DNA of 64,000 bases from a bacterium (lineage in GTDB: Bacteria; Electryoneota; AABM5-125-24; Hatepunaeales; Hatepunaeaceae). The notes below the pieces were generated by a model that saw nothing but the letters and a program-made list of their open reading frames with translations, made no database searches and was not told the origin of the DNA. Shown piece after piece: positions 2,663-57,840 of the stretch (positions are counted from its first letter, which is position 1; the number at the start of each line of letters is the position of its first letter). A program made the position numbers and the translations under genes. Location: contig JALGVR010000001.1 in the NCBI GenBank assembly GCA_025774605.1, forward strand, positions 2,634-66,633, given 5' to 3'.

Positions 2663-3187
2663 TCACCATAACAGCACGGCCGCCAAGGCTGCGCCGGCAA
2701 CCTGCACCCTGTGCTGCACGGATACACTCTTAAGCTCAGCCATCACCTGACCGCGGTCGGCCAACGCCTGACGAGCCATGTCGCGCACCTTCTCTTCGAG
2801 AATGTCGGCGGGATCATCCGAGCCGCCCTCCATGATCACTCCCGGAGCCGTCCAATCCGCGGGAATTCCCACCGCCACGGCAGCGGAAAGCAGTTCGCTT
2901 TTCCTTGTTGAAACTTTTGAACCAATAGCCGCATAGACAACCGCGCCACCGGGCAGTTCAGCCCTGACGCCGGGCTTTACACCGGGTGGAAGTATGCTGG
3001 TTACCTTCACCAGGTTCAGATCGCCGACGCCGGCGGATCGCAGCGCACGGTCGAATGCATTGAGCGGATGGGTGGCATCCCCGACACCGCTGACAAGCAG
3101 AAAGGACCTGGGAACGCACACCCGGCAAAGAGGATTGACAGAGGTTTCTGCGCGGTTCAGGTTGTCACTTACGAGATCGGTGGTCAT
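2663..3187 (-). CDS. pdaD: Pyruvoyl-dependent arginine decarboxylase.
   Basis: 174 aa. PdaD/AaxB family features (LVKVTSILPPG, small pyruvoyl enzyme). It sits between speH and speE. Confidence 0.7.
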   Translation of the reverse strand: MTTDLVSDNLNRAETSVNPLCRVCVPRSFLLVSGVGDATHPLNAFDRALRSAGVGDLNLVKVTSILPPGVKPGVRAELPGGAVVYAAIGSKVSTRKSELLSAAVAVGIPADWTAPGVIMEGGSDDPADILEEKVRDMARQALADRGQVMAELKSVSVQHRVQVAGAALAAVLLW

Positions 3188-3655
3188 TTACTCTTCCACG
3201 ATCGAGGGTTTGTGCCTGATCCGTCCGCTCAACGGCTTCAGGCGACCGCGGAAGAATTCCCGCACTTCGAAGCGCACGGCACCCAATTCACGGCGCAGAA
3301 GATCGAACCCCTTGTATGGATCGACAACATCGCCGCAGGTGAACAGGTCAAGCGCTGCGTAGCCGTATTCCGGCCAGGTATGAATGGCGAGGTGGGATTC
3401 CGCAATCACCACCACACCGCTGATACCGTGAGGACTGAAGCCGTGGAATACCTCACCTACAACCGTCGCGCCGGTTGCGCTGGCCGCTTCGAGCATCGCG
3501 CCGCGTATGTGCGCTTTATCGTTCAGCAACTCCGGCGAACAACTATAATATTCCACCATCAACTGATGTCCGAGCGCGTTACTGTCGGAGTGGTTCTGTT
3601 CAAGGCCCCGATCCGCGGCCGGCGTATTGTGAAAGATATATTTATTCTCAACCAT
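3188..3655 (-). CDS. speH: S-adenosylmethionine decarboxylase proenzyme (pyruvoyl, SpeH/SpeD type). The start was chosen at the third in-frame Met, MVENKYIF; the ORF extends to 3718.
   Basis: The core aligns to Bacillus SpeH (GHQLMVEYYSC..ISGVVVIAESHLAIHTWPEYGYAALDLFTCGD). The start choice is uncertain. Confidence 0.7.
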   Translation of the reverse strand: MVENKYIFHNTPAADRGLEQNHSDSNALGHQLMVEYYSCSPELLNDKAHIRGAMLEAASATGATVVGEVFHGFSPHGISGVVVIAESHLAIHTWPEYGYAALDLFTCGDVVDPYKGFDLLRRELGAVRFEVREFFRGRLKPLSGRIRHKPSIVEE

Positions 3656-3690
3656 ATGACTACCCTGACGAAGATTGTACATAATCCCGG

Positions 3691-4233
3691 TTAGAAGTAT
3701 GGGGGAGAGGTAATCCATAAAACCGCGGCATGGCCGCGGCCCGGGTTGCTGATTTTGTGCTCTCGATCAGCAGTGAAATAAAAGCTCTGTTCTGCTTTGA
3801 TGCGATAGATCTCACTGCCGTATTGCAGTTGAATCCTGCCGCGAAGTACGTAGCCGTAGTTGTCTCCATTAAACGAGGAACGAAGCGAGGTTGCTTCACC
3901 AGGCGCCAGCTTCAATATCGCAGGCTCCATCTCGCGATTGGTCGCTCCCGGAACCAGGAGCAGCAATTTCCCCGTTCCACCCTCGTCGAGCTCGACCTGA
4001 TTATCGGACGTGAACACTACCTGTTCGCGCGGACCCTCGCTGAAAAAATCCGCCAGGGAGACGTTGAGGGCATCGAGGATCTGCTTCAGACTGTCAATGG
4101 AAATGGAGGTCAAGCCGCGTTCGATCTGCGAGATAAACCCGTCAGTCAGACCGGAGCGGAGCGCGAGCTCGCCCTGTGTCAGTTCGGCCGACTTGCGTAG
4201 ATCCCTGATTTTCCTGCCTATCTCATCGATCAT
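3691..4233 (-). CDS. XRE-family HTH transcriptional regulator with a C-terminal cupin domain. It is the likely regulator of the adjacent polyamine operon.
   Basis: The N-terminus has a HTH_3 pattern (IGRKIRDLRKSAELTQGELALRSGLTDGFISQIERG). A cupin-like C-terminus follows. It is divergent from the AT-rich promoter region at 4240-4640. Confidence 0.75.
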   Translation of the reverse strand: MIDEIGRKIRDLRKSAELTQGELALRSGLTDGFISQIERGLTSISIDSLKQILDALNVSLADFFSEGPREQVVFTSDNQVELDEGGTGKLLLLVPGATNREMEPAILKLAPGEATSLRSSFNGDNYGYVLRGRIQLQYGSEIYRIKAEQSFYFTADREHKISNPGRGHAAVLWITSPPYF

Positions 4234-6157: not shown

Positions 6158-7060
6158 ATGAGTCCGGAAGAGAAAATATCTTTGATGACTGAGCGGCTGC
6201 CGGCGGTAAAGGAGCTTGCTGCGGTCTGCAGGCTCTGCCCGCGTGAATGCCTGACCAGGCGCGGCGAGGGGGAACTCGGCGAATGCCGCATCGGATCCGC
6301 GCCTGTCTATTCCAGCGCCGGCCTGCATCACGGCGAGGAACCCCCCATTTCAGGTCAGCGCGGTTCGGGAACCATCTTTCTGACCGGCTGCAACCTCCAC
6401 TGCAGGTTCTGCCAGAACTACCCGATCAGTCAAATGCGCCACGGCAATGAGATTACCGTCGATATCCTCGCCGCGCTGATGCTGGACCTGCAGAACCAGG
6501 GCGCACACAACATAAACTTCGTAACACCCACGCATCAGGCGGCAGCCATATACGAAGCGCTGATAACAGCCTTCAGGAAAGGACTGAATATCCCGCTCGT
6601 CTATAACAGCGGCGGATATGATTCCCTGGAAATGCTGAAGCTCTGGGACGGAATCATCGATATCTACATGCCGGATGCCAAGTATGGCGGGGACGAGCCT
6701 GCCCTGAAGATCTCGAAAGTAAAAGAATATACAAGATTCAACAGAATCGCGCTTAAAGAGATGCAACGGCAGGTCGGTGTGCTTAAATTAGACGATCACG
6801 GCGTCGCAAGGAGAGGTCTCCTGGTCCGGCACCTCGTTCTGCCCGGATCACTCGCCGAATCGAGGGAGGTGCTGCGCTTCATCGCCGAACAGATTTCAAA
6901 GGAAACCTATGTCAGCCTGATGAGCCAGTATTTCCCCGCTTACAAGGCGCTTGATCATGAAGCGCTCAAGCGGCGGGTTTCACGATCTGAATATCTTGAA
7001 GCCAAAACCGCGCTGGAGGAATTCGGTTTGACGAACGGATGGATTCAACCGATATGGTAG
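6158..7060 (+). CDS. Radical SAM protein, PflX-like (pyruvate formate-lyase activating enzyme-like).
   Basis: CNLHCRFCQN radical-SAM CxxxCxxC. An N-terminal extra Cys cluster (CRLCPRECLTRRGEGELGEC) is typical of the PflX/YjjW-like family. Confidence 0.7.
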   Translation: MSPEEKISLMTERLPAVKELAAVCRLCPRECLTRRGEGELGECRIGSAPVYSSAGLHHGEEPPISGQRGSGTIFLTGCNLHCRFCQNYPISQMRHGNEITVDILAALMLDLQNQGAHNINFVTPTHQAAAIYEALITAFRKGLNIPLVYNSGGYDSLEMLKLWDGIIDIYMPDAKYGGDEPALKISKVKEYTRFNRIALKEMQRQVGVLKLDDHGVARRGLLVRHLVLPGSLAESREVLRFIAEQISKETYVSLMSQYFPAYKALDHEALKRRVSRSEYLEAKTALEEFGLTNGWIQPIW

Positions 7061-7141
7061 GCGACCGATCCATGGAAGCCTGACGGGCTGCGGGGACGAA
7101 CAGAAGTGATTTATTGGATGGCGTACTTCATAGTTGGTCTT

Positions 7142-7245
7142 GGCGGGCGGACGTTCCTGTCCGCCCGGGTGGTTGCGGGTGGTAGTTTTTACGGGCAGGA
7201 ATTTCCGCCCTCCAGGTTGCGCCCGGAATATTAATTGCACTCCTT
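7142..7245. repeat. Repeat family C: two GC-rich hairpins (ggcgggcggacgttcctgtccgcccgg; cgggcaggaatttccgccctccagg) followed by ATTAATTGCACTCCTT.
   Basis: A second copy lies at 50236-50300 (perfect palindrome cctggagggcggacaggaatgtccgccctccagg plus an identical 16-mer). Confidence 0.55.
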
Positions 7246-7250
7246 AACAA

Positions 7251-7739
7251 GTGGAACTGAAGATCATTACAATCGAGACCCCCATCGGCAGAATGGGATT
7301 ATTTGCCCGGTCCGGCAAGCTGGAACGGGTTGTATTTCCCAATGACTGCCCGGATATAGGCCAGGACGATGTTAAACGTTCCGGCTTGCGCAGCGATCCC
7401 GCTTTCAGGGACGCGGTGGACCATATCGAACGCTATTTCAGGGGGGAGCATGTCAGTTGGGCAGGCAGGCCGGTTCCGGTGGGCGGCGCTTTTTATTCCA
7501 GGGTATGGGCTGCCGCGGCGACCATTCCGTTCGGCAACACGGTTTCGTACGGTGAACTTGCCGGAATGGCGGGCAATGGACGCGCTGCCCGTGCTGCCGG
7601 GATGGCCATGAAACATAATCCTCTGCCGATCCTGATACCCTGCCACAGGGTTATCGGCTCGGACGGCGGGCTTCATGGATTCGGCGGCGGACTCGACCTG
7701 AAGCGCTGGTTGCTCCGTCACGAAGGTGTGGAGATTTAA
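7251..7739 (+). CDS. ogt: Methylated-DNA-protein-cysteine methyltransferase (GTG start).
   Basis: PCHRV active-site motif. 162 aa. HTH-like DNA-binding C-terminal half. Confidence 0.85.
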   Translation: MELKIITIETPIGRMGLFARSGKLERVVFPNDCPDIGQDDVKRSGLRSDPAFRDAVDHIERYFRGEHVSWAGRPVPVGGAFYSRVWAAAATIPFGNTVSYGELAGMAGNGRAARAAGMAMKHNPLPILIPCHRVIGSDGGLHGFGGGLDLKRWLLRHEGVEI

Positions 7740-7765
7740 GAATGAACAACTCAACATGGTAAAAG

Positions 7766-8614
7766 ATGTTCACCGGAAACATGATGTCACCTAAACGAGC
7801 CTCGATATGGGTGTTGTTCTGGGTGCTGTCAGCCATCGGCTTTTCATGGCTGCTTTTCTATTACTACGACCGCCAGCACCAGCTCGAGTTCCTGACCTGC
7901 TACGTGATCGAATGGTCGCTCTCGCTTGACAACCTGTTCGTCTTCCTGATGATATTCGAAGCGTTCGGTGTCGATGCCCACAAGCAGCTGCGGGTGCTGC
8001 ACTGGGGAATCATCGGCGCCATGGTCTTGAGGATGATCTTCATCATGTTGGGCGTGACCCTGGTAAAGATGTTTGAACCGATACTTTACCTGTTCGGCGC
8101 TTTCCTGATCTTCAGCGCGTACAAGATGGCTTTCAGGAACAAGGGCGAAAAGGAGGTCGGTGACAATATAATGGTCAGGCTGGTGAGGAAACGATTCCCG
8201 GTGACCAAAAACTTTGTGGGCGACGCATTCTTCGTGCGTCGACAGGGATTGACGCTTGCCACGCCGATGCTGCTGGTACTGGTGGCCATCGAGAGCTCGG
8301 ACGTGATATTCGCCGTCGATTCCATCCCCGCCGCCTTCGCTATAACCCGAAAGCCGTTCATCATTTACAGCGCGAACATCTTTGCCATCCTCGGGCTTAG
8401 GTCGCTCTATTTCCTTCTCGCCCACGCCGACAGGATGTTTCGCTATCTGAAGTACGGTGTGTCCATTGTGCTCGCCTTCGTCGGCTTCAAGATGCTCGCC
8501 GGACATTACGTTCATGTAGACCAGTATCTCTCGCTGGGAGTGGTTGTATTCTGTCTCGCCGGCTCCATTATAGCATCCTCGCTGTTTGGACGCGAGTGCG
8601 ACGGGCCTTCCTGA
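7766..8614 (+). CDS. TerC-family integral membrane protein.
   Basis: Multiple TM helices. Conserved TerC motifs (EWSLSLDNLFVF..., AVDSIPAAFAIT). Confidence 0.75.
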   Translation: MFTGNMMSPKRASIWVLFWVLSAIGFSWLLFYYYDRQHQLEFLTCYVIEWSLSLDNLFVFLMIFEAFGVDAHKQLRVLHWGIIGAMVLRMIFIMLGVTLVKMFEPILYLFGAFLIFSAYKMAFRNKGEKEVGDNIMVRLVRKRFPVTKNFVGDAFFVRRQGLTLATPMLLVLVAIESSDVIFAVDSIPAAFAITRKPFIIYSANIFAILGLRSLYFLLAHADRMFRYLKYGVSIVLAFVGFKMLAGHYVHVDQYLSLGVVVFCLAGSIIASSLFGRECDGPS

Positions 8615-8750
8615 TTTCACGCCCCTGTTTAGCAAGAATAATCTCATTTAATTCTTGACTTGATCTGATGAGATGTTTAACTTTCAATTAATTCCGGGCG
8701 GCTTCGTGAACTGCATCCAATCCGTTGTTTTACCCTTTTTGGGAGGATCT

Positions 8751-11700
8751 ATGAAATCTTACCTTTCGTTAACTTTTTACCTGGTGTTGGTCGCCTTCCT
8801 GGTTTTCCAGCCGCCACAGGCGGGATCGACACCTGAAGGAAGCGCAATCAGTTACGATCTGATCAAACATAAGGTTATGAGCGGCATTTCCCTGCAACCA
8901 GCCGAGCAGGAATTTTGGCGGAAAGTACAGAGCGAGGGAAAACCGGCAAAGCCTGCTCAACGGGGACCCCGCCGCGATGACCGGGGCGGTCCCGACGACT
9001 TTGGTTACCGTTGGGTTGATTCCGATGAAAATGGCGGTCCGGAATATGAGTGGATCGACATCAGTGATTTCGACGACGTCGTCAACATCAATGGCGTCGG
9101 CGATGACACCAACCACGGTCCCTATGAGCTGGGTTTTGATTTTCCTTACTATGACAACGAGTTCGATCGGATCCGGTACTGCTCGAACGGGTGGGCTTCC
9201 TTCACCAACTCCACTTCAATTTACAACTTTCAGAACTTTGATTTACCCTCGAGGAATCTTCCCGAGAATCTGCTCGCCGTATGTTTGACCGACTGGAATC
9301 CCAATAACGGCGGCGGCACATACATGTTCTGGACGGACGAGGACATGGCGGTGCTGACCTGGGAGAACATCCCCCACATCGACCAGGGGCATGCCCGCTG
9401 GACCTTCCAGATCATACTGACGCCCAACGGGATGATCAAGTATCAGTACGCCCAGATCAATCAGCTCCAGAGAAACACCCTGATCGGATTTCAGAATGAC
9501 GACCAGAACGACGGACTTACCATATATCAGGGCAACGGGGGCAATCTCGACGAGGAGTACGCCATCCGGATCAGCGCCGCGATGGGCTGGCTGACCGGAA
9601 CGGTTACCGATCTGGAAACCGACGAGCCGATCGAGGGCGCGGCGATCACCCTTTCCGACGGTAACCAGGCGGAAACAGACGAAGACGGCGTCTATTGGTT
9701 TGACGAAATCCAGGCTGATCCCTATACCGCCACAGCCAGCATGTACGGCTATAACCCGGTAACCAGCGATGAATTCGAGATTGCCGATCAGGAGACCACC
9801 CTGGTCGATTTCAGCCTGCCGCATCCGGAGATCAGGCTTGACGTGGATGAGTATATAGTTGAGCTCGATCCCCAGCAGACTCAGGAGAACGAGTTTAATA
9901 TCATCAACGAGGGGAATGGTGAACTGACATTCGACTCGTATTTCACCGTCCCGCGTGAAGAGAGACGCGATCCTGCCGGAGACATCCATTTCGATTTGCC
10001 TGTCAGCCAGATAACCGAAGAGATGAACTTCCGGGGTTTGACAAGCGACGGTAACAACCTCTATCTCAGCGGTTCCAACAACCTGGATGATCCCAACTAC
10101 ATCTATGTTTTCGACCGGGAGGGCGAGTATATCCGGCGGTTCGAGCAGCCGGTCGAAGACCCGTCTTCGATCGGAATGCGCGGTCTTGCCTGTGACGGCA
10201 ACTACCTCTACGGTTCCGACGGTCCGACCATAACCCAGTTCACAACCGACGGTGAAGTGGTGGCTCAGATACAGAGCCCCTACGATCCCTCTCGCTACAT
10301 CAACTATGATCCGGAGACCGGTCATTTGTGGATAGGTGAACGTATCGGCGATATAACCGAGATCGACCGCGAGGGCAATGTTCTGACGGAGCTCGACATC
10401 GACATGCGCATCTACGGCATGGCTTGGCATCCGGCGGATCTGGACGGATACAACATATACGTTATCAACAGGCTGGAGGATAACGAGGAGTGCCAGCATT
10501 CGATCTTCAAGGTCAACCCCGAAAACGGAGATGTCCGGCATGTGATGGATCTGCACACGGGCGAGGGTGATCAATCGCTCGACCTGGAGATCACCAATGC
10601 CTATAATCCACTGATCTGGCTGGGCATCGGTCTGGTTGAGAACGATCGCGCCGATCGTGCGGTCGGCTTTGAGATCGAGCTCAATACGACCTGGGTGGAG
10701 ATCGACCCGATGGCGGGCACGGTCGATCCCGATTCCGAACAGCCGGTCTCAGCGACCTTCCGCTCCGGAAACTGGATGCCCGGCACCTATGACCTGGTCC
10801 TCATCATCGAACACAACGCGGCGGGTGATGACCTGGAGCTGCCGCTGACCATGTCGGTTACGGACGCGGGGCTTGAACCGGAGCACTTTGAATTCGCGGT
10901 AACCGGCATCGAGCACAGGTTCACGATCAACGCGGTGCAGCTGCGGGGTCAGCGCGCCTCCTATGGCGACGAGATCGGCATCTTCACTCCCGATGGTCTA
11001 TGCGTCGGCGCCTCGCGCTGGTTCGACCAGGTCACCACTGTCACCGCCTACGGTGATGATCCGGAAACAGGCGAGACTGACGGCTTCGAAGATGGGGAAG
11101 AGCCGGCCTTCAAGGTTTATGACGTCAGCGCCGGTTTGGAGTTCGACGCCGAGTTTACAAGATCATCCGGTGACGAAACCTTCCAGCCGGACGGTTTCAC
11201 GAGGGGAACGCTGTCGGTCGCCGGTCATGCCGTGGAGCAGGTGTTCGACCTGCCGATCGGCTGGAGCCTGATCTCCTCGTACCTGATTCTCGACCGCCAC
11301 GACATCGATTTTATATTCGCCGACCTGGTTGAACGGGACGTTCTGATCATGCTGAAGGATGGCGAGGGTCATTTCTACCGTCCGGATTACGGCTTCGACA
11401 ACATCGAGGAGTGGCGGGAAACTCAAGGCTACCAGATCAAACTCCGGCAGAATGACAGCTTCAGCCTGAGCGGTGAGAGGCAGGAGGCGGACGCGCCGAT
11501 CGACCTCGTCCAGGGCTGGAACCTCATCACCTACTTCCCTGACTGGGAGATGCCGGCGCCGACGGCATTCGCCGGATTGGGTGACAACCTGATTATCGCC
11601 AAGGATGGACACGGTAATTTCTACATACCTGCATGGGATTTTTCCAACATGGGCAACCTTTCAGAGGATAACGGTTACTATATCAAGGTTGATGAAGGCG

Positions 11701-12371
11701 TGGAATTCCACTATCCTCAGGAGGAAGAGGCCGCCGCCTTATCAATGCCCGCTCGGCGGCTTAATCGTCTTAATCCGGTTGCGCCGACGGACAACAATAT
11801 GTCATTGCTCGTTCTTTCAGCCGGCGAATACGGCGGGTGCGACCTTGCCGTGGTGGACGCTTCAGGTCGGATCTGCGGCGCGGCGTGTCTGAACGAAAAC
11901 AGCCCGACCGGTCTGGCTGTCTGGGGCGACGACCCGACCACGTCTGAGCTCGAGGGGCCCGTTGAAGGAGACCGCCTGCATCTGGTTATCCATAGGGATA
12001 ACGGGAAGCCGGAAAACGTCTTCTTCAATCCGGTTTCCGGTGAGCTCGTTTACCGGATTGACGGCTTCACGGCGATTGAAGCCTCCGCGCCGCGATCGGC
12101 CGTTCCCGGTGATTTTTACCTCGACGGCGCATATCCCAATCCGTTCAACGATCAGACCGTGGTGAAGTTCGGTCTGGCGGAGTCGGGCGATGTGAAACTG
12201 ACGATGTATGACCTTGCCGGAAGACTGGTTGATGTGCTGATTTCGGGTCGGATGTCGGCCGGTCATCATGCGGTCACATGGCATCCGCGGGGGCTGACTT
12301 CGGGCATGTATCTCCTGAAACTCGAAGCATCCAACCACACAGGAATCGTCAAGGTCCTGCTGCTCAGATAA
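8751..12371 (+). CDS. Large (about 1200 aa) acidic secreted protein. It has a signal peptide, a carboxypeptidase-regulatory-like beta-sandwich, NHL/beta-propeller-like repeats and a C-terminal T9SS (Por) sorting domain.
   Basis: The start was moved to MKSYLSLTFYLVLVAFLV (SD gggagga upstream). It contains GTVTDLETDEPIEGAAITLSDG..DGVYWF (CarbopepD_reg-like). The C-terminal 80 aa (YPNPFNDQTVVKFGL...MYLLKLEASNHTGIVKVLLLR) match the T9SS CTD pattern. Confidence 0.65.
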   Translation: MKSYLSLTFYLVLVAFLVFQPPQAGSTPEGSAISYDLIKHKVMSGISLQPAEQEFWRKVQSEGKPAKPAQRGPRRDDRGGPDDFGYRWVDSDENGGPEYEWIDISDFDDVVNINGVGDDTNHGPYELGFDFPYYDNEFDRIRYCSNGWASFTNSTSIYNFQNFDLPSRNLPENLLAVCLTDWNPNNGGGTYMFWTDEDMAVLTWENIPHIDQGHARWTFQIILTPNGMIKYQYAQINQLQRNTLIGFQNDDQNDGLTIYQGNGGNLDEEYAIRISAAMGWLTGTVTDLETDEPIEGAAITLSDGNQAETDEDGVYWFDEIQADPYTATASMYGYNPVTSDEFEIADQETTLVDFSLPHPEIRLDVDEYIVELDPQQTQENEFNIINEGNGELTFDSYFTVPREERRDPAGDIHFDLPVSQITEEMNFRGLTSDGNNLYLSGSNNLDDPNYIYVFDREGEYIRRFEQPVEDPSSIGMRGLACDGNYLYGSDGPTITQFTTDGEVVAQIQSPYDPSRYINYDPETGHLWIGERIGDITEIDREGNVLTELDIDMRIYGMAWHPADLDGYNIYVINRLEDNEECQHSIFKVNPENGDVRHVMDLHTGEGDQSLDLEITNAYNPLIWLGIGLVENDRADRAVGFEIELNTTWVEIDPMAGTVDPDSEQPVSATFRSGNWMPGTYDLVLIIEHNAAGDDLELPLTMSVTDAGLEPEHFEFAVTGIEHRFTINAVQLRGQRASYGDEIGIFTPDGLCVGASRWFDQVTTVTAYGDDPETGETDGFEDGEEPAFKVYDVSAGLEFDAEFTRSSGDETFQPDGFTRGTLSVAGHAVEQVFDLPIGWSLISSYLILDRHDIDFIFADLVERDVLIMLKDGEGHFYRPDYGFDNIEEWRETQGYQIKLRQNDSFSLSGERQEADAPIDLVQGWNLITYFPDWEMPAPTAFAGLGDNLIIAKDGHGNFYIPAWDFSNMGNLSEDNGYYIKVDEGVEFHYPQEEEAAALSMPARRLNRLNPVAPTDNNMSLLVLSAGEYGGCDLAVVDASGRICGAACLNENSPTGLAVWGDDPTTSELEGPVEGDRLHLVIHRDNGKPENVFFNPVSGELVYRIDGFTAIEASAPRSAVPGDFYLDGAYPNPFNDQTVVKFGLAESGDVKLTMYDLAGRLVDVLISGRMSAGHHAVTWHPRGLTSGMYLLKLEASNHTGIVKVLLLR

Positions 12372-12397
12372 AGTGACGTGAACCCCCGGTACGAAAA

Positions 12398-12425
12398 GCC
12401 CCGGTTTTCAGCCGGGGCTTTTTTC
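12398..12425 (+). terminator. Rho-independent terminator after the T9SS-protein gene.
   Basis: gccccgg-ttttcag-ccggggc followed by TTTTTT. Confidence 0.7.
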
Positions 12426-12454
12426 TCAAGGCGCTTCATTTTAATATCATATCT

Positions 12455-12890
12455 CACATTGTCATTCCTGTGAAGGCAGTCTGTCCGAGAATGAGAAAAA
12501 CGCACCAAACCTCATCATTCCATCGAAAGATGGAATCCAGTAACACACGTAATATCAGCAACATCACTGGATTCCAACCCCCGCGTCCGCGAGGGCATGC
12601 TTCCGTTGGAATGATGAATCCCGAGACAATTTGCTATTCTCAGACAGGCCGGCAGGCAGGAATCCACTGTTTGCAGGTATATACTTCTTTCCGGATAACT
12701 GCTTCCGCAGGTGCGACACGTTACATGAGGACGCCGACTGAAGTCGGCGCTCCCCGTTCAACTGCTTCCGCATGTATGACGTTTGACCGACCTCTTCAAC
12801 AGGAACGTCCGCTCCCCGGGCTCGACCATAGGGAGCCCCGCTTAACAACTGATAATGACAACGTGAATAGTCAGAATGACAGCCTGGATG
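12455..12890. repeat. Non-coding, repeat-rich spacer of about 450 bp with several short inverted repeats. It includes degenerate family-A units (gtcattcctgtgaaggcag..., gtcagaatgac) and one family-B half-site (ggacgccgactgaagtcggcgctcccc at 12729-12755).
   Basis: Seen directly. No credible ORF. AT-rich promoter-like sequence follows (12900-13200). Confidence 0.5.
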
Positions 12891-13205
12891 AATCTGCGTT
12901 TCAATAATACTTACCGAAATGTTAATCGCGTAATAAAATGTTTTATTAATCAAACAATATGATTTTTAAGAATTTTCTAACAGTATAAAGAATTTAATTG
13001 AATTAATCTTGACATCCTTGAAAGTGTATTATATATTGCTTTGTGCTTTAAGGAACTTGTAGTGCATATTTTTCTTATGCGCCGATTGTCCGTCGGAAAC
13101 TCCGTCCTTGTTGATTGTTTTCAATATCGGAATAAAGCGGCAATCTGCGCGTTTTTATACTTGATACTATTGAAATTAGCGAAACATAAATCGGGATAGG
13201 GTAGA

Positions 13206-15320
13206 TTGGATCAATATCTTTTAATCACACTGATAGCTGGTGTACTGGCGTTGCTCTTCGCCCTTTTCAAGGCCGGACTGGTCAAACGTCAGGATGTTGG
13301 CGATGCCAGGATGGCGGAGATAGCGAAGAATATCCATGAGGGGGCGATGGCCTTTCTGGGTAAAGAATACTCGGTTCTCGTCATCTTCGTGATAGCAGTA
13401 GCGATCCTGCTGGCGATCGCCAACGCGGGCAACCCGGAATCACACGCGCTCGTCGCCCTGTCGTTCGTTCTCGGCGCGATCTGCAGCGGCCTGGCGGGTT
13501 TTTTCGGGATGACCGTCGCCACCAAAGCCAACGTCCGTACGACTCAGGCGGCGCGCACCGGATTATCCAAGGCGTTGTCCGTCGCGTTCTCCGGTGGAAC
13601 CGTAATGGGGATGTCGGTGGTCGGGCTGGCGGTATGCGGTCTGGTGATACTGTTTCTCGTTTATACCAGGCTGATGGGTTTTGACGCACATACGCACATC
13701 GGGCTTAAGAAGCTCCTGGCCACCATATCCGGTTTTTCTCTGGGCGCTTCATCAATCGCCCTGTTCGCCCGTGTCGGCGGCGGTATTTACACGAAAGCCG
13801 CTGACGTCGGCGCCGACCTGGTCGGGAAGGTGGAAGCCGGCATTCCGGAAGACGACCCGCGCAATCCCGCGGTTATCGCTGACAACGTCGGGGATAATGT
13901 CGGCGACGTCGCCGGTATGGGAGCCGATCTGTTCGAGTCATACGTCGGAGCGATCGTCGGTTCGATGGTCATCGGCGGCTCGAGCTGGTATGTGTTGTCT
14001 GCAGGTGCGGAGAAGGCGTTGATGCCGGTGATGCTGCCGCTTGTGCTGGCAGCGGCGGGGATCATCGTCTCCATAATCGGCACCTTCTTCGTTCGGTCGG
14101 GAGAGAAATCGAATCCACAGACCGCGCTGAACATCGGCACGTTCGGCGCCGGGATTTTGATGGTGATCGCTTCCTGGTTCATCATACATGCCTTTATCGA
14201 GAGGCCGGTGCGGGTCACCGATTTCTTCGGTGTTATGCACACCTATACGGCGACCGGCGTCTTTCTCGCCACGATCTACGGATTGCTCGCCGGAATTGCC
14301 ATCGGGCTGATCACCGAATATTTCACATCCGAAAGCCGCGGTCCTGCGCATGCTGTCGCCCGCGAGAGCCTGACCGGCGCGGCAACCAACATCATCGCGG
14401 GGTTGGCGACCGGCATGCGGTCCACAGCCCTTCCGCTGATAGTGCTCGGCGCCGCAATCATCCTGGCCTATCATTCAGCCGGTCTCTACGGGATCGCCAT
14501 CGCTGCAGTCGGAATGTTGTCTACAACCGGAATTCAGCTCGCCGTCGATGCCTATGGCCCGATTGCCGACAATGCCGGTGGGATAGCGGAGATGGCCGAG
14601 CTCGGCCCTGATATCCGCAGGCGAACGGATAAACTCGACGCGGTCGGAAACACAACTGCCGCGATCGGCAAGGGCTTCGCCATCGGGTCGGCCGCACTGA
14701 CCGCGCTGGCGCTGTTCTCGGCGTTCATGACTGTAGTGCAGATCAAGCATCCTGACGTCAGGATAGACGTTATGAATCCGAACGTGATGGCCGGTGTACT
14801 GGTCGGCGCCATGCTCCCGTTCCTGTTCAGTTCATTCGCCATGCGCGCTGTCGGGCGCGCGGCCGGGAAGATGATCGAAGAGGTGCGCCGCCAGTTCAAG
14901 GAAATACCCGGTTTGCTGGAGGGCAAGGAAGGCGTCAAGGCGGATCACAGCCGCTGTGTCACCATCGCCACCGCCGGCGCCATCAAGCAGATGGTTGCAC
15001 CGGGGTTGTTGGCTGTCCTGACACCGGTGGTGGTCGGCTTTGCATTCACCGACAAGTCGGTATTGGGTGGACTGCTTGTCGGCGTTACATCGTCCGGCGT
15101 GCTGATGGCGATCTTCATGTCAAACACCGGCGGCGTGTGGGACAACGCCAAAAAGCATATCGAAGGCGGAGCGTATGGCGGCAAGGGTTCCGATGCCCAT
15201 AAAGCCGCCGTGGTAGGCGACACGGTTGGCGATCCGTTCAAGGATACCGCAGGCCCATCGCTGAATATTCTCATCAAGTTAATGAGTGTCGTTTCGTTGG
15301 TTATTGCGCCCCTGTTGTGA
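13206..15320 (+). CDS. hppA: Membrane-bound proton/sodium-translocating pyrophosphatase (TTG start).
   Basis: 704 aa with about 16 [11 protein letters not shown] and [10 protein letters not shown] signature motifs of H+-PPase. Confidence 0.9.
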
Positions 15321-15423
15321 GGAGGAATTACTGCAGGACGGGATGATGAGAATGGGATTCCATCACCCTCTGCACATTTCCGGGTGGCGATTTGTTAAAG
15401 TCATTTCAAAAGCGAGGTGTTAA

Positions 15424-16656
15424 ATGGGTAAATTGATAAGACCCCACGGCTCCGACAATCTGATCACGCTCCTGTTGCAGGGTGAGGAACTGGCGGCAGA
15501 ACGGCGGAGAGCGGAAACGCTCCCCCAGGCGCGCATTACCTCCCGCGAGGTCGGTGATTTGATCATGATGGGCATCGGCGGATTCACGCCGCTGAAGGGA
15601 TTCATGGGTCACGACGATTGGAAGGGTGTCTGCGCGGAGATGAAGATGACCGACGGCACCTTCTGGCCGATACCGATCACCGTATCGGTCGACAAGGAAT
15701 TCGCTGATTCGATCAGGGAAGGCGACGAGATAACCCTCGTCAACGACGAAGACGGGGATCTCATGGCGACCATGAAAGTCGGCGATAAATATACGATCGA
15801 CAAATCATTCGAATGTAAACACGTTTTCACCACTGACGATCTTGAGCATCCCGGCGTCAAGATGGTGATGAGCCAGAAGGAGGTCAACCTCGGGGGTGAG
15901 GTCAAGGTTCTGTCGGAGAGCTATTTTCCAAAGGAGTTCGCCGGTATCTACCAGCGTCCGGCGGAAAGCCGCAGGATCTTCGAGGAGAAGGGCTGGCGGA
16001 CGATAGCCGCACTGCAGCTCCGCAACCCCATGCACCGTTCGCACGAATATCTGGCGAAGATCGCCATTGAAGTCTCGGACGGTCTGTACATTCACCAGTT
16101 GGTCGGCAAGCTGAAGCCGGGAGACATTCCGGCCGACGTTCGCGTGAAATGTATCAACACCCTGGTGGAGAATTATTTCAACAAGGAGCGGGTGGTCATG
16201 GGCGGCTATCCGCTCGACATGCGTTATGCCGGTCCGCGCGAAGCCTTGCTGCACGGCGTCTTCCGCCAGAACTTCGGCTGCACGCACATGATCATCGGAC
16301 GCGATCATGCCGGTGTCGGCGAATATTACGGCCCGTTCGACGCTCAGACCGCATACTACGACCTGTGGGAAGGCGCCCTGGAATGCAAGATGCTGCCGAT
16401 CGACTGGACGTTCTGGGACTACGGTCAGGGCGGCATGGCGTCGATGAAGACCTCACCGGATAAGAACAAGGACAAGCGGCTGTTCCTTTCGGGCACCAAG
16501 CTGCGCAAACTGCTCAGCGAAGGCAAGCTGGACGAGATTCCACCGGAGTTCAGTCGTCCGGAAGTCCTTACCATTCTCAAGGAGTACTACGCCGGGTTGA
16601 CCGAGAAGGTCGAGATCAAGATGCACGGCTACGCCACCGGTGAAGGAAAGAAATAG
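15424..16656 (+). CDS. sat: Sulfate adenylyltransferase (ATP sulfurylase), dissimilatory type.
   Basis: 410 aa. [12 protein letters not shown] and GRDHAGVG motifs. It lies 100 bp after hppA and just upstream of aprBA. Confidence 0.9.
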
Positions 16657-16710
16657 AATCATATAAACATGAAGCCAAAATAACTAATACCAATTAATTC
16701 TGGAGGGAGA

Positions 16711-17151
16711 ATGCCAAGCTATGTAAATCCAGAAAAGTGCGATGGGTGCAAGGCGCTGGACAAGACCGCTTGCCAGTATATCTGCCCCAACGACTTGATG
16801 GTCCTGGACAAGGCGACCGAGAAGGCTTACAACCAGGATGTCGCCATGTGCTGGGAATGCTATAACTGCGTGAAGATATGCCCCGTGGATGCGATCGAAA
16901 TGCGCGGTTATGCTGACTTTGTGCCACTCGGTGCAACTGTCACACCGATGCGCGGTTCAGATGCCATTATGTGGACCGTGAAGTTTCGCAACGGGATGTT
17001 GAAACGGTTCAAGTTCCCGATCCGTACAACTCCTGAAGGTTCCGCGGTTCCTGACGGCGGTTGGGATACCGGGACGGATGATTTGGGCGATGCCACCCTG
17101 TTCACCGAACCGGGATCAATCGGGCTGCCTGAAGTTCCAACCCTGAAGTAG
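16711..17151 (+). CDS. aprB: Adenylylsulfate reductase beta subunit.
   Basis: The MPSYVNPEKCDGCKA N-terminus is characteristic of AprB. Two [4Fe-4S] Cys clusters. Confidence 0.9.
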   Translation: MPSYVNPEKCDGCKALDKTACQYICPNDLMVLDKATEKAYNQDVAMCWECYNCVKICPVDAIEMRGYADFVPLGATVTPMRGSDAIMWTVKFRNGMLKRFKFPIRTTPEGSAVPDGGWDTGTDDLGDATLFTEPGSIGLPEVPTLK

Positions 17152-17164
17152 AGGAGTCGTCACA

Positions 17165-19051
17165 ATGGCAAATTTTGAAACTGTTACAGTAAACACCGAT
17201 CTGCTGATTGTCGGCGGCGGCATGGCTGCCTGCGGCGCAGCGGTGGAAGCGGCGTACTGGGCCAAGAAGAACGGCCTGAACGCCGTTATCGTCGACAAGG
17301 CTGCCCTGGATCGTTCCGGCGCGGTGGCGATGGGGCTTTCGGCGATCAACCAGTACGTCGGTCTCAAAGATGGTGATAACACCCTGACCGACTATGTCAA
17401 TTACGTGCGCAACGACCTGATGGGTATCACACGTGAAGACCTGGTCGCCAGCATTGCCCGCCACGTCGACGGGACAGTTCACCTGTTCGAGAAATGGGGT
17501 CTCCCGATCTGGAAGGATGAGGACGGCAAGTACGTGCATGAAGGCCGCTGGCAGCTCATGATCAACGGCGAATCCTACAAGGTTGTCGTCGCCGAAGCAG
17601 CCAAGAATGCAATCGGGATCGACAACCTCTACGAGCGCGTGTTCATCGTCGGTCCGCTGATGGATGGCGACCGCGTTGCCGGCGCAGTCGGTTTCTCGGT
17701 TCGCGAGGAGAAGTTCTACGTGTTCAAGGCAAAGGCTGTCCTGGTTGCCATGGGCGGCGCCGTGCACGTCTTCAAGCCGCGTTCGGCCGGTGAAGGTCTC
17801 GGTCGCGCCTGGTATCCACCCTGGAACTCCGGCTCATCCGCCTACTTTACGCTGAAAGCCGGCGCCGAGATGACCTGCCAGGAGGTCCGGTTCATCCCGG
17901 TGCGCTTCAAGGACGCCTACGGCCCTGTCGGCGCCTGGTTCCTGCTGTTCAAATCCCGCGCCACCAATGGCTTCGGAGAAAACTACATGCAGACCAACGC
18001 CAGTGAGCTCGAGAAATGGGTTCCGTACGGCAAGGTTAAGCCTGTACCCGCCAACCTGCGCAACTGGCTCATGATGCTCGATGTGATGGACGGCAAGGGC
18101 CCCATCTACATGCGTACCGAGGAAGCCATCGCCAACATCGCCGAGCAGTACAAGGACGATCCGAAGGCTTACAAGAAGAAGATGAAGGAGCTCGAGTCCG
18201 AAGCCTGGGAAGATTTCCTTGACATGACCATCTCACAGGCTTTCCTCTGGGCGGCGACAAACGTTGCTCCCGAGGAGAGGTCTTCCGAGATCGCCGCCGC
18301 CGAGCCGTACTTCATCGGCTCACACTCCGGCGCTTCGGGAGCATGGGTCTCCGGACCTGAAGACCTTCAAACCGACGAGACCAGAGGTGAGTACTTCTGG
18401 GGATACGCTCACATGTCCACCGTCAAGGGCCTGTTCTGTGCCGGTGACGCATCAGGCGCATCATCTCACAAGTTCTCGTCAGGTTCTCACGCTGAGGGGC
18501 GCATCGCGGCAAAGGCGGCCGTCAAGTTCATCATTGACAACAACACAATGCCGAATGTCAGCGACGAGACGATCGAAGGGTTGAAGAAGGAGATACTTGC
18601 CCCGCTCGACCGCTTCGCCCAATTCAGCAAGAACACCACCGATCCGGACGTCAACCCGGATTACATCCGTCCCAAGATGTTCATGTTCAGACTGCAGAAG
18701 ATCATGGACGAGTACGCCGGTGGTGTGACTTCCCAGTTTATGACCTCCAAGGTCATGCTGGATAAGGGGCTTGAGCTGTTGGCTTTCCTCAAGGAAGACT
18801 CGGAAAAGCTGGCCGCCGAGAACCTTCATGAACTGATGCGCTGCTGGGAGAACATCCATCGCATGTGGCAGGCTGAAGCCCACGTCCGCACCATCCTCTT
18901 CCGCGAGGAGACCCGTTGGCCCGGTTACTACTTCCGTGCCGACTGTCCCGAGATGAAGGATGACTGGAAGGTCTTCGCCAACTGCCGGTGGGATCCCGCC
19001 AGCGGCGAATGGGAGATGAAGAAAAGACCGGTTTACCAGATATTTGACTAA
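17165..19051 (+). CDS. aprA: Adenylylsulfate reductase alpha subunit (FAD flavoprotein).
   Basis: 628 aa. DLLIVGGGMAACGAA FAD motif. VDKAALDRSGAVAMGLSAINQY is typical of AprA. Confidence 0.9.
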   Translation: MANFETVTVNTDLLIVGGGMAACGAAVEAAYWAKKNGLNAVIVDKAALDRSGAVAMGLSAINQYVGLKDGDNTLTDYVNYVRNDLMGITREDLVASIARHVDGTVHLFEKWGLPIWKDEDGKYVHEGRWQLMINGESYKVVVAEAAKNAIGIDNLYERVFIVGPLMDGDRVAGAVGFSVREEKFYVFKAKAVLVAMGGAVHVFKPRSAGEGLGRAWYPPWNSGSSAYFTLKAGAEMTCQEVRFIPVRFKDAYGPVGAWFLLFKSRATNGFGENYMQTNASELEKWVPYGKVKPVPANLRNWLMMLDVMDGKGPIYMRTEEAIANIAEQYKDDPKAYKKKMKELESEAWEDFLDMTISQAFLWAATNVAPEERSSEIAAAEPYFIGSHSGASGAWVSGPEDLQTDETRGEYFWGYAHMSTVKGLFCAGDASGASSHKFSSGSHAEGRIAAKAAVKFIIDNNTMPNVSDETIEGLKKEILAPLDRFAQFSKNTTDPDVNPDYIRPKMFMFRLQKIMDEYAGGVTSQFMTSKVMLDKGLELLAFLKEDSEKLAAENLHELMRCWENIHRMWQAEAHVRTILFREETRWPGYYFRADCPEMKDDWKVFANCRWDPASGEWEMKKRPVYQIFD

Positions 19052-29164: not shown

Positions 29165-30862
29165 ATGGCTTTAGTAAAGAAGAAGAAGAAACTCACCATA
29201 AAAAGTGTCGGCGCTTCCGGCGCTTCCGGAGTGGAACACAGCCCGCGCCGGCCCTATCAGATCGAGAAACTTGCACCGTGTATGGGCGGCTGCCCGCAGG
29301 GGACGGATATCCGCGGTTTCCTGATGAAGATCGCCCAGGCGGAGAAATACGGACAACCGCAGGAGGAAGCCTTCAGGGAGGCCTGGGAAATACTCACTGC
29401 AACCAACCCGCTTCCGGCGATCTGCGGTCGCGTCTGTCCCCACCCGTGCGAGGACGGCTGCAACCGCAAGGAGAAGGACGGCGCGCTGGCGATAAACAAC
29501 GTCGAACGTTTCCTGGGCGACTGGGGGATCAAGCAGGAACTGAAGTTGAAAAAATCGACCGACGAATCCTATCCCGAGAAGGTCGCCATCATCGGCGCCG
29601 GACCGGCCGGTCTTTCGGCCGCCTATCATCTGGCGAAGCGCGGCTACGGGGTCACGATCTTCGAGTCGTTCCCCAAGGTCGGCGGAATGCTGCGTTACGG
29701 CATTCCCCGGTACCGGCTGCCGCGCGGGATCATAGACGCGGAAGCGCAGAAGATATTCGATATGGGCGTGGAGATTAAAACCAACGTCACCGTCGGCAAA
29801 GATATACCCTACGAGAAGTTGCAGCAGGACTTTGACGCCGTATTCGTCGGTATCGGCGCCCATGGCGGCAAGAAGCTCCACGCACCCGGTGAAGATGCGC
29901 CGAACGTTTACAGCGGAGTCGAATACCTTCGCCTGGTGAACAGCGGGAAGCCACCGGAGGTTGGAGATAAGGTGGTCGTCGTCGGCGGCGGTGATACGGC
30001 GATCGACGCCGCACGGGTCGCCCTGAGGCTCGGCGCCAAGGTCACCCTGCTCTATCGCCGCACGCGCAACGAGATGCCGGCCATCGAGGAGGAGATCGTT
30101 GGCGCCGAAGAGGAGAACATCGAGTTTCACTTCCTTGCCGCCCCGATTGAGATTATCCAGAAGGATGGTTTGGCTGTCGAAATGCGCTGCCAGAACATGG
30201 AGCTCGGCGAACCGGATGAATCCGGCAGACGCCGCCCGGTGCCGATCGAGGGAGATGAATTCACCATTCCTGTCACCGCGGTCATCTCGGCGATCTCCCA
30301 GGAGCCTGACTGGGGCGGATTGGATCACCTGCACGAGGGCAGGGACTGGGTCAAGGTGGACGAATACGGTCAGACCAAATACGAAGGGACATACGCCGGC
30401 GGCGATGTCCTGGATCTGGGACTGGTGACGATTGCAATCTATCAGGGTCGCCGAGCCGCCGACACGATTCATAATCGGTTCCGCGGGATTGAACTGAAGC
30501 CGGAGGAGATGAAGAAGGTTATCAGCGCCGACAAGCTTCTGCTCGACTGGTACGAGAACGCCCAACGTCATGAGGCGACGAAGATCCCCCCCGATGAGCG
30601 GTTCAAGGATCCGTGGTCGGAGATAACAGAAACGCTGCCTGACAGCGACATTATCGCTGAAGCCAGACGCTGTATGAGCTGCGGTATATGCTTCGACTGC
30701 GGCAATTGCTGGAGCTACTGCGGCGAGAACGTGGTTGTCAAACCGCTCGTACCCGGCGATCCGTACAAGTTCAAACTCGAACTGTGCAACGGTTGCGATA
30801 AATGCGCTGAAAACTGCCCTTGCGGATACCTCGAGATGAAAGATCCAGCAAGTCTACCATAA
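29165..30862 (+). CDS. dsrL: DsrL-like NAD(P)H:acceptor oxidoreductase (GltD-like Fe-S flavoprotein with a C-terminal ferredoxin domain).
   Basis: GltD-type N-terminus (CMGGCPQG...CGRVCPHPCE). FAD and NAD Rossmann motifs (IIGAGPAGL; VVVVGGGDTA). C-terminal Cys clusters (CMSCGICFDCGNC; CNGCDKCAENCPC). Located between dsrN and dsrC. Confidence 0.7.
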   Translation: MALVKKKKKLTIKSVGASGASGVEHSPRRPYQIEKLAPCMGGCPQGTDIRGFLMKIAQAEKYGQPQEEAFREAWEILTATNPLPAICGRVCPHPCEDGCNRKEKDGALAINNVERFLGDWGIKQELKLKKSTDESYPEKVAIIGAGPAGLSAAYHLAKRGYGVTIFESFPKVGGMLRYGIPRYRLPRGIIDAEAQKIFDMGVEIKTNVTVGKDIPYEKLQQDFDAVFVGIGAHGGKKLHAPGEDAPNVYSGVEYLRLVNSGKPPEVGDKVVVVGGGDTAIDAARVALRLGAKVTLLYRRTRNEMPAIEEEIVGAEEENIEFHFLAAPIEIIQKDGLAVEMRCQNMELGEPDESGRRRPVPIEGDEFTIPVTAVISAISQEPDWGGLDHLHEGRDWVKVDEYGQTKYEGTYAGGDVLDLGLVTIAIYQGRRAADTIHNRFRGIELKPEEMKKVISADKLLLDWYENAQRHEATKIPPDERFKDPWSEITETLPDSDIIAEARRCMSCGICFDCGNCWSYCGENVVVKPLVPGDPYKFKLELCNGCDKCAENCPCGYLEMKDPASLP

Positions 30863-45016: not shown

Positions 45017-45043
45017 TTGGGGCGTCGCATAAACTCTGTTTCC

Positions 45044-57530: not shown

Positions 57531-57609
57531 CCTGAAGGCATATTTTGCCGATTGGATCTTTATTGCTTGACTTGTTACTCAACGCGGTCCATTTCCATAT
57601 CGACTGCCC

Positions 57610-57808: not shown

Positions 57809-57840
57809 CAGATCTTCATGTCATCTCATTGGGGAAATTT

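Follow-up and report, generated by a model that had tools for sequence, protein, structure and literature searches.

What does a large acidic protein with a type IX secretion system (T9SS) sorting domain do in a flagellated sulfate reducer? The question is raised by the gene at positions 8751-12371 of the forward strand (+) of the window, by which we mean the whole stretch of 64,000 nucleotides that was analyzed. A first-pass annotation, made from the letters of this stretch, had considered it odd that such a tail should occur next to a dsr system and a sigma54-driven flagellum. The genomic context is as that annotation described it: the window carries sat, aprBA, qmoABC, dsrAB, dsrN, dsrC, and dsrMK..OP; a sigma54 activator, flgC, fliE, and fliFGH are present as well.

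The gene is real and encodes a large acidic secreted surface protein. Its coding sequence (8751..12371, stop codon 12369-12371), which is supported by the ORF list, the homologs, and the pI, specifies a product of 1206 aa with a pI of 4.16, a D+E content of 17.4%, and a K content of 1.5%, in keeping with the earlier description of a 1.2-kaa acidic protein. All domains are acidic, the C-terminal sorting domain (CTD) being the sole exception. The longest frame spans 8673-12371 and offers an alternative upstream ATG at 8673, but the ATG at 8751 is preferred because a Shine-Dalgarno site (GGGAGGA, 8741-8747, read directly from the sequence) lies 3 nt 5′ of it. About 13 full-length homologs with 40-75% identity are found, and homologs align with their own residue 1 at this position, which backs the start chosen in the first-pass annotation. 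Since the homologs are taken as limited to the long sense ORF, the antisense ORF at 9243-10574 (443 aa) and the other overlapping ORFs are taken to be by-products of that ORF. All features discussed below lie on the forward strand.

The C-terminus (residues 1126-1206, 12126..12368) is a true T9SS sorting domain of type A, as illustrated by both curated HMMs, its motifs, and its predicted fold. Por_Secre_tail (PF18962) matches residues 1128-1202 with 35.0 bits (cut-off 27), and TIGR04183 scores 37.3 bits (cut-off 23); the match stops 4 residues short of the C-terminal end. The motifs YDLAGR (G1157), SGMY (G1185, Y1187), and KVLLLR (K1201) are invariant in 19 aligned relatives. In RgpB and PorU, the Gly of the D-x-x-G-R (beta3-beta4) loop and the C-terminal Lys strand are functionally required (PMC11285876). 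The CTD is predicted to take on a seven-stranded Ig-like β-sandwich that matches the solved T9SS CTDs, so that both the profile searches and the structure prediction bear out the original assignment.

The 64-kb window and 11 related loci contain no T9SS machinery (SprA/Sov, PorV, PorU, GldK/L/M/N, and others were looked for). T9SS genes are usually scattered through a genome, and their absence from ~0.3 Mb of sampled DNA is therefore weakly informative. In one related locus (L007), a DUF6588 protein adjoining the C25 genes was considered as a PorV-like component and rejected by NCBIfam and PDB sequence searches, and the gldA/F/G-like genes of the same locus fall below the equivalog cut-offs; gldA/F/G are in any case not core T9SS genes. 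Two unannotated genes in the cargo cluster of another locus (L009) gave merely a sub-threshold BamG match. Within the literature library covered, no paper links Calditrich* to T9SS, type IX, or Por secretion, and, to our knowledge, the secretion machinery of this non-Bacteroidota FCB lineage has never been examined experimentally.

Judged by its protein sequences, the organism is a member of a Calditrichota-like (FCB) lineage. The full-length orthologs that have a source name come from MAGs labeled Calditrichaeota or Calditrichota, and the best named matches of the housekeeping protein RecR carry the same two labels (68-73% identity), followed by KSB1 and Zixibacteria; in both cases these are source labels and not a phylogeny. 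Calditrichaeota belong to the FCB superphylum and possess TIGR04183 domains as well as complete flagellar gene sets, and TIGR04183 has been reported to be confined to FCB phyla, Calditrichaeota included (PMC5317091). Calditrichaeota bins with Sat/Qmo/AprAB/DsrAB have likewise been published (PMC7887784). The supposed oddity thereby dissolves: the T9SS tail is ordinary here because tails, flagella, and sulfate-reduction genes were already known together in this lineage. The cargo protein adds to an already known kind, the type-A CTD cargo, and confirms that an FCB lineage other than Bacteroidota, one that is flagellated and reduces sulfate, regularly uses type-A tails. The closest annotated counterparts are the T9SS type A sorting domain-containing proteins P0005 (GCA_018644935.1) and P0011, which are 44-46% identical over 99% of the query, have a length of ~1200 aa, and share the CarboxypepD_reg and Por_Secre_tail domains. 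They differ from the target merely by sequence divergence and copy number, and their annotation is automatic, with a name derived from the CTD alone. An exact-sequence search with the protein gave no match, and a contig search additionally returned a partial ortholog that is 76% identical and an unrelated Ignavibacteriaceae CTD protein. For RecR, a fragment 100% identical to the window is located on a contig of 80.6 kb.

The N-terminal half starts with a Sec-type signal peptide (residues 1-24, 8751..8822) that was assigned by inspection and consists of MKS, a hydrophobic core, and the putative cleavage site PQA|GS. A hydrophobic signal-like N-terminal segment is visible by inspection in all full-length homologs, and none of them exposes a Gln after the likely cleavage site. 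Residues 25-72 (8823..8966) form a short helical segment of two helices followed by a basic linker (K+R > D+E), where the pLDDT of AF2 model 1 drops below 50. This is followed by module A (residues 73-280, 8967..9590), a NIDO-like β-domain. The target itself gives no PF06119 NIDO or other Pfam match in module A (E<=1), and the assignment stems from its relatives: PF06119 matches homologous segments of P0020 (80.1 bits), P0050 (31.1), and P0022 (28.0), which coincide in part with the regions that align to query residues 56-282. In P0020 and P0023, module A is present three to four times over. The next domain is a prealbumin-like β-sandwich of the CarboxypepD_reg type (residues 281-356, 9591..9818), for which PF13620 scores 58.9 bits (cut-off 32.3, E 6.5e-16) and PF13715 39.3 bits, and the CarbopepD-like character noted in the first-pass annotation is thus substantiated. 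An NCBIfam match to an anammox S-layer glycoprotein was discarded as an identification of the protein, being confined to this same domain with 38.7 bits versus a cut-off of 1400. The propeller that follows is flanked by Ig-like strands on both sides. On its 5′ side, residues ~357-411 (9819..9983) are assigned to Ig-like strands of the ASH/HYDIN type by AF2 secondary structure and by a GNG.L.F motif, which we take to be typical of this Ig class; PF22544/PF07610 are found in relatives. On its 3′ side, residues 637-705 (10659..10865) form an Ig-like β-sandwich according to AF2 strands and weak Pfam matches to Ig_CFAP65_4th (638-689) and Cep192_D6; the two Ig-like stretches may belong to a single domain.

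Residues ~412-636 (9984..10658) are predicted to fold into a five-bladed β-propeller. Reading this region as NHL-like repeats was reasonable as a guess at the class of fold, but membership of the NHL family does not hold: no NHL profile matches the propeller, and five blades are predicted where the NHL criterion is six. The predicted propeller is closer to the propellers of type-I glutaminyl cyclase (3mbr, 3nok) and of the E. coli YjiK/SdiA-regulated domain (3qqz), both of which are five-bladed. The identity to these propellers is 13-15% and no family HMM is significant; the target propeller also differs from the glutaminyl cyclase/YjiK setting in that it sits inside a multidomain secreted protein.

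The C-terminal half is dominated by a cassette of ~420 residues (706-1125) with the order X-GW-GW-X, for which there is no Pfam or NCBIfam model. Its first unit, the β-sandwich X1 (residues 706-830, 10866..11240, pLDDT ~90 in AF2 model 2), likewise finds no match among Pfam or NCBIfam models. Two GW repeats follow (residues 831-917 and 918-1005, 11241..11765), which were delimited by repeat alignment and AF2 model 2. They share the pattern GW(S/N)LI ... KDG.G.FY.P ... GY.IK and are 37% identical to each other (E 1e-11); the family-invariant residues are G138, W139, K170, G174, W224, K252, and D253 in the numbering of model 2, i.e., protein residue minus 699. A linker and the last unit, the β-sandwich X2, complete the cassette (residues 1006-1125, 11766..12125, AF2 model 2). 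X1 and X2 are related to each other (28% identity, E 4e-6) and have the WGDDPTT motif in common. The predicted fold of the C-terminal half resembles the strings of Ig-like domains in adhesins and surface layers, among them Bap, Lap, Haloferax csg, and GhpA.

The cassette is very widespread: a search with it hit 7,299 representative protein clusters, of which 4,168 have E<=1e-10. A CTD occupies the extreme C-terminus in 134 of the 147 best matches, whose proteins are 315 to 7,635 aa long. In 106 of these 147, the aligned region runs to the cassette's end, and 105 of the 106 have the terminal CTD next; the median number of residues remaining past the cassette in the 106 is 84. It is conceivable, though doubtful, that the cassette is an undescribed conserved extension of the type-A secretion/anchoring apparatus in non-Bacteroidota FCB (e.g., a stalk or docking unit working with the CTD), coupled with a divergent, uncharacterized T9SS on which flagellated, non-gliding Calditrichota that reduce sulfate would rely for CTD-dependent export. 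For annotation, the practical value lies in the cassette being a very widespread unmodeled module; in the target, four module types covering ~70% of the protein are without a curated model.

With this architecture, the function of the protein can be approached through the company its modules keep. No catalytic domain is recognizable in the cargo protein. Peptidase_C25 (PF01364) and Propeptide_C25 (PF08126) give no match in the target at E<=1, but both are carried by module-sharing relatives. Query residues 73-705 and 820-1206 align behind the peptidase domain of the C25 proteins P0022 and P0028, while module A aligns with the PPAD protein P0050 and with the S8 proteins P0023 and P0048. Because the modules extend C25 gingipain-like peptidases in an unchanged order, and module A also follows the catalytic domains of a PPAD and of subtilases, we infer from the architecture alone that the target is an adhesin-only binding or surface-coat protein. 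The gene probably encodes a non-catalytic type IX secretion cargo of a Calditrichota-like (FCB) sulfate reducer that serves as an enzyme-less adhesin or surface coat.

The comparison with P0022 and P0028 is instructive in this respect. Both are C25 peptidases of the gingipain type that carry a long adhesin extension and belong to the same class of type-A CTD cargo, and modules A and B as well as the pre-CTD cassette of the target align behind their catalytic domain. RgpA and Kgp of Porphyromonas gingivalis are gingipains with adhesin extensions, and HagA is an adhesin-only protein. By analogy, the target may relate to its C25 relatives as HagA does to the gingipains, i.e., as an enzyme-less paralog derived from the accessory modules of a protease. 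The building blocks differ, since the target uses NIDO-like, propeller, and X/GW modules where P. gingivalis uses Cleaved_Adhesin domains, and the host of the target is not a member of Bacteroidota. The gene would offer a clean case of an enzyme-less cargo built from gingipain-like peptidase accessory modules, and may help to find the ligands of these modules in degraders that live on particles or in sediment.

In the proposed route, the protein would cross the inner membrane by Sec via its N-terminal signal peptide and subsequently fold in the periplasm. The type-A CTD would then be recognized and the protein moved across the outer membrane. The CTD is probably removed, as in other type-A cargo, leaving the protein attached to the surface or released. 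By sequence and predicted fold, the mature protein is a β-rich chain composed of the NIDO-like domain, the CarboxypepD_reg sandwich, the propeller with its Ig-like strands, and the X-GW-GW-X cassette. The propeller, perhaps together with the NIDO-like domain, would form the ligand-binding part, and the cassette may be a stalk or a unit for presentation beside the CTD.

Other readings have to be weighed against this one. Instead of a ligand-specific adhesin, the protein could be a structural component of a surface layer or coat, in analogy to TfsA/TfsB of Tannerella forsythia, which we consider unlikely. In T. forsythia, the genes of TfsA and TfsB are adjacent, and the relatives of the target comprise comparable tandem pairs (P0008 and P0009, 81% identical). 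The S-layer pair of T. forsythia is secreted via the T9SS, on which it depends (PMC4175972). A length of ~1200 aa, a pI of 4.2, a terminal type-A CTD, and the conservation of the family in the same place on the chromosome in 7 of 9 loci would all suit such a role, and high expression is suggested by the Shine-Dalgarno site, the strong terminator, and a CAI of 0.65 (upper third relative to sat/apr/dsr), although this codon signal is weak. TfsA/TfsB and the target have in common that they are large β-rich surface proteins with a T9SS CTD, but no sequence homology is detectable between them. No solved or named S-layer protein resembles the target in sequence either, and the low-scoring anammox match from NCBIfam described above is confined to the CarboxypepD_reg domain. 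The appending of the same modules to peptidases favors an accessory or binding role over a lattice-forming one. A cryptic enzyme is quite improbable as well. In structure, the propeller is indeed best matched by an enzyme, glutaminyl cyclase, and it could be imagined as a working glutaminyl cyclase of type I (plant/bacterial) or as some other propeller hydrolase displayed on the surface. Against this speak the low identity to these enzymes and the lack of Glu_cyclase_2 or glycoside-hydrolase Pfam matches among 12 family propellers (E<=10). In a PDB profile search, papaya QC reached E 0.35 over 18 residues versus E 0.006 for the nonenzymatic YjiK, and the family-invariant residues are chiefly Gly, Asp, and Pro at the turns of the blade repeats.

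It is also improbable that no canonical T9SS acts on the CTD-like domain in this lineage, with the protein taking a divergent or other outer-membrane route or staying in the periplasm. The missing T9SS components in the ~64 kb window and the flanks of the 11 related loci could be read this way, as could a weak match of the CTD to FlgD_ig and the statement in the Caldithrix abyssi genome paper that no gliding machinery of the Bacteroidetes type was found (PMC5317091). The critical CTD positions are, however, invariant in the family and in its C25 relatives, which argues for selection by a cognate recognition machine, and related loci show the same tail on many different cargoes, C25, S8, β-helix, and LVIVD proteins among them. 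The C25 cargo in L007 is moreover adjoined by the gldA/F/G-like genes, and the sampled ~0.3 Mb says little about scattered genes. A functional tie to the neighboring genes, in which the TerC protein encoded upstream metalates the cargo during Sec export or the cargo serves the sulfate-reduction locus (surface metals or sulfide), is highly improbable. TerC adjoins the target family in 7 of 9 loci, even though the flanking proteins are just 47-83% identical, the 3′ genes are hppA-sat-aprBA or dsrC-dsrMK-like in five lineages, and the cargo protein is strongly acidic; TerC proteins of B. subtilis metalate exoenzymes during Sec export (PMC10550928). P0005 sits in the same context as the target, rSAM-MGMT-TerC-[gene]-hppA-sat-aprBA. 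Yet this block also holds MGMT, an unrelated gene for DNA repair, and a radical-SAM gene, which fits inherited synteny, and the orthologs P0003 and P0002 occur in other contexts, while the 3′ genes of a further locus (L011) are unrelated. A metal site was not identified in the cargo protein, and the gene has its own terminator without cotranscription with hppA.

This terminator closes the cargo gene as its own transcription unit in the target and its relatives. It lies at 12394..12425 (inverted repeat I8) and consists of an 11-bp perfect stem, a 7-nt loop, and a T run (AAAAGCCCCGG-TTTTCAG-CCGGGGC, followed by six T). The RNA fold has an energy of -23.7 kcal/mol (z -4.4), and none of 200 shuffles folds equally well, so the strong terminator proposed earlier is upheld; equivalent hairpins are found 3′ of the gene in six related loci. 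The spacer at 12372-13205 was also considered as a decayed second copy of the gene, which was rejected as tblastn with six family proteins gave chance matches only. Its description as repeat-rich proved apt: the 3′ spacer harbors inverted repeats of short length, and a palindromic element in it is found again at other places in the window.

The 1206-residue protein encoded at 8751-12371 is an uncharacterised type-A cargo of the T9SS (type IX secretion system) of an FCB bacterium and newly added to a known kind of protein. The longest plus-strand frame at this place runs from 8673 to 12371. The ATG at 8751 is the likely start, because a strong Shine-Dalgarno site (GGGAGGA, 8741-8747, plus strand) ends 3 nt before it and homologues align from their own residue 1, which bears out the ORF of about 1.2 kaa in the first-pass annotation. 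The product is acidic as described there (pI 4.16; Asp plus Glu 17.4%, Lys just 1.5%), and the acidity extends over all modules except the last 80 residues. The strong terminator that had been noticed takes the form of a perfect 11-bp hairpin with a T run behind it, immediately past the stop codon (12394-12425, plus strand; -23.7 kcal/mol, z -4.4 against shuffles). Hairpin terminators close the gene here and at six related loci; hence its transcription is separate from that of the sulfate-reduction genes.

Just two Pfam domains match the protein, and its structure was therefore predicted from family alignments in two halves, each with high confidence (mean pLDDT 85.1 and 86.1). Module borders were set by combining the two models with BLAST mapping onto relatives. 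A signal peptide recognised by inspection (residues 1-24) is followed by short helices and a basic disordered linker in the model (25-72). Module A (73-280) has no direct Pfam match in the target and is called NIDO-like from BLAST mapping, as the segments aligned to it in three relatives (P0020, P0050, and P0022) match PF06119. A CarboxypepD_reg sandwich (281-356, 58.9 bits; cut-off 32.3) precedes modelled Ig-like strands (about 357-411), a predicted five-bladed β-propeller (about 412-636), and further Ig-like strands (637-705, Pfam search and model). The next 420 residues form a cassette of four units: a modelled sandwich X1 (706-830), two “GW” repeats delimited by repeat comparison (831-917 and 918-1005; 37% identity, E 1e-11), and a linker with a second sandwich X2 (1006-1125), which is defined by the model and by its likeness to X1 (E 4e-6). 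The C-terminal sorting domain (CTD) occupies residues 1126-1206 according to profiles, motifs, and predicted fold.

The NHL-like repeats proposed earlier hold as far as a β-propeller is predicted, and the NHL label falls away: Pfam yields neither an NHL nor a glutaminyl-cyclase match, and a few sub-threshold matches to SdiA-regulated and phage receptor-binding propellers. The family profile of the propeller matches WD40-type repeats, YjiK (E 0.006), and papaya glutaminyl cyclase at just E 0.35; judged by sequence the propeller is generic. Fold matches of the C-terminal half are exclusively strings of Ig-like sandwiches, among them complement C3, alpha-2-macroglobulin, the Bap and Lap adhesins, an archaeal S-layer protein, and GhpA. 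None of the searches found a catalytic domain in the target, in keeping with the initial view of a cargo without assignable function.

The CTD is genuine, since profiles, motifs, and fold concur. Both curated models exceed their cut-offs (Por_Secre_tail PF18962 at residues 1128-1202, 35.0 bits against 27; NCBIfam TIGR04183, 37.3 against 23). The domain opens with PNPFN; it also has the YDLAGR glycine, SGMY, and the lysine of its last strand, KVLLLR. None of these varies among 19 aligned relatives, C25 peptidases among them. In Porphyromonas gingivalis, both the corresponding glycine (RgpB G699) and the motif at the C-terminus are needed for secretion (PMC11285876). The predicted fold belongs to a common class and taken alone is weak evidence; it counts as support because it accords with the profile matches and motifs. 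The target is the one CTD-bearing ORF in the window.

The cassette before the CTD (706-1125, window 10866-12125) has no Pfam or NCBIfam model. Searched on its own, with the CTD left off, against 1.84 billion representative proteins, it gives 7,299 matches at E≤1e-3, 4,168 at E≤1e-10, and 1,014 at E≤1e-30. Among the best 147 of the 7,299, a sample biased towards the best matches, a family-built CTD profile matches 137 proteins, 134 of them at the extreme C-terminus. The cassette end is reached by 106 of these 147, with a median of 84 residues remaining (10-90% range 82-98), and in 105 of the 106 a terminal CTD follows directly. The best-matching proteins range from 315 to 7,635 aa in length, and cassette proteins share contigs with orthologues of the target at two related loci (P0223 at L007, P0301 at L004). 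In this sample the cassette is thus a common unit that precedes the CTD in many kinds of cargo from these organisms.

About 13 full-length homologues are found (40-75% identity, about 1200 aa), each from metagenomes; those with names come from Calditrichaeota or Calditrichota MAGs and are annotated as “T9SS type A sorting domain-containing protein”. Other relatives attach the same blocks to enzymes. P0022 and P0028 carry Propeptide_C25 and Peptidase_C25 followed by regions like residues 73-705 and 820-1206 of the target, a Porphyromonas-type peptidylarginine deiminase precedes module A in P0050, and module A stands behind the enzyme in the subtilases P0023 and P0048. P0020 and P0023 hold three or four copies of it. 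The target is thus composed wholly of modules that act elsewhere as non-catalytic extensions of secreted enzymes. Its most likely role, which we hold with moderate confidence, would be that of an enzyme-less adhesin, binding, or surface-coat protein. In P. gingivalis, HagA is the enzyme-less counterpart of the gingipain peptidases, and the target parallels HagA in its relation to the C25 relatives, as an analogy and with no claim of homology.

The gene order (rSAM)-MGMT-(DUF362)-TerC-target is kept in seven of the nine loci examined (window, L001, L003/L004, L006, L008, L010, and L011), and the flanking proteins are merely 47-83% identical. In the window, this block and the downstream genes take up 6158-8614 and 13206-19051. 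The target gene is followed by hppA-sat-aprBA in the window, L003/L004, L006, and L010, by dsrC and dsrMK-like genes in L008, and by unrelated genes in L011. Tandem duplicates occur in two lineages (P0008/P0009 of L003/L004, 81% identical, and two copies in L010). The orthologues P0003 and P0002 lie outside the block, P0002 within a CTD-cargo cluster of C25, S8, and LVIVD proteins. A functional tie to TerC is conceivable, as TerC proteins of Bacillus load exoenzymes with metal while these are exported through Sec (PMC10550928), but such a link is supported no better than one to MGMT, an equally conserved neighbour. The adjacency is read as inherited synteny.

The interpretation in the first-pass annotation was half right: its CTD holds, the cargo shows no recognisable enzyme domain, and its taxonomic surprise falls away. 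The neighbouring dsr and sigma54/flagellar genes are present as described; the oddity seen in their union with a T9SS CTD dissolves, as the combination is already known in the Calditrichota lineage. TIGR04183 has been described from FCB members only, Calditrichaeota included (PMC5317091), Sat, Qmo, AprAB, and DsrAB are reported in Calditrichaeota bins (PMC7887784), and DsrABC also occurs in related FCB groups such as AABM5 (PMC9727166). Given these published contents of the phylum, a genome that unites a type-A CTD with a flagellum and dsr genes is to be expected. RecR of the window (48854-49471, minus strand) has its closest named hits in Calditrichaeota/Calditrichota MAGs (68-73% identity), followed by KSB1 and Zixibacteria (about 57%). 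Bacteroidetes signal peptides obey a “Q-rule” (PMC5837995); in the target and its homologues (N-termini of P0001-P0019), predicted cleavage exposes no Gln, which together with the Shine-Dalgarno site fits a non-Bacteroidota host.

No T9SS machinery genes occur in the 64-kb window, none were seen in the related loci examined, and a literature search found no paper linking T9SS to Calditrichota. That the functional positions of the CTD are so strictly conserved argues for a cognate machine that would recognise the domain. In L007 (16294-21951), genes for a DUF6588 protein without PorV signal, gldA/gldF/gldG-like ABC transporter genes that do not reach the equivalog cut-offs of NCBIfam, and a gene with DUF4340 adjoin two C25 CTD-cargo genes; a link of these neighbours to gliding or T9SS accessory functions is possible and unproven. 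L005 (4919-8005, minus strand) encodes an unusual peptidase/outer-membrane barrel fusion of 1,028 aa that joins Peptidase_MA_2, PD40/Tricorn-like propellers, and a C-terminal Omp85 barrel.

The genes for dissimilatory sulfate reduction form a compact locus at 13206-36805 in this Calditrichota-labelled genome. Its order is H+-PPase (hppA), sat, aprBA, qmoABC, dsrAB, dsrN, a DsrL-like NAD(P)H oxidoreductase (29165-30862), dsrC, dsrMK, dsrOP, and sirohaem genes. It also holds a CxxCxxCC protein after aprBA and an RsbRD_N (DsrT-like) protein between dsrC and dsrMK, and an Npsr-like CoA-disulfide reductase-rhodanese fusion accompanies the sirohaem genes after dsrOP. The gap 34488-34807 contains no dsrJ-sized ORF. 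Beyond the locus, a sigma54 activator gene is accompanied by flgC, fliE, and fliFGH. ORFs 3068-3694 (208 aa), 3730-4200 (156 aa), and 57721-58248 (175 aa) match no Pfam family; the last, just upstream of flgC, may be a flgB that has diverged or some other flagellar gene. Neither a tRNA gene nor an Rfam match at gathering thresholds is present in the window. The spacer 3′ of the target contains a short intergenic palindrome (core GACGCCGACTGAAGTCGGCGCTCC) that looks like a REP-type repeat. Copies lie at 12728-12758, 44944-44964, 44987-45017, 57609-57630, and 57662-57683, those that follow the PFOR and sigma54 activator genes as inverted pairs, and two are exact over 24 nt against 0 expected by chance.
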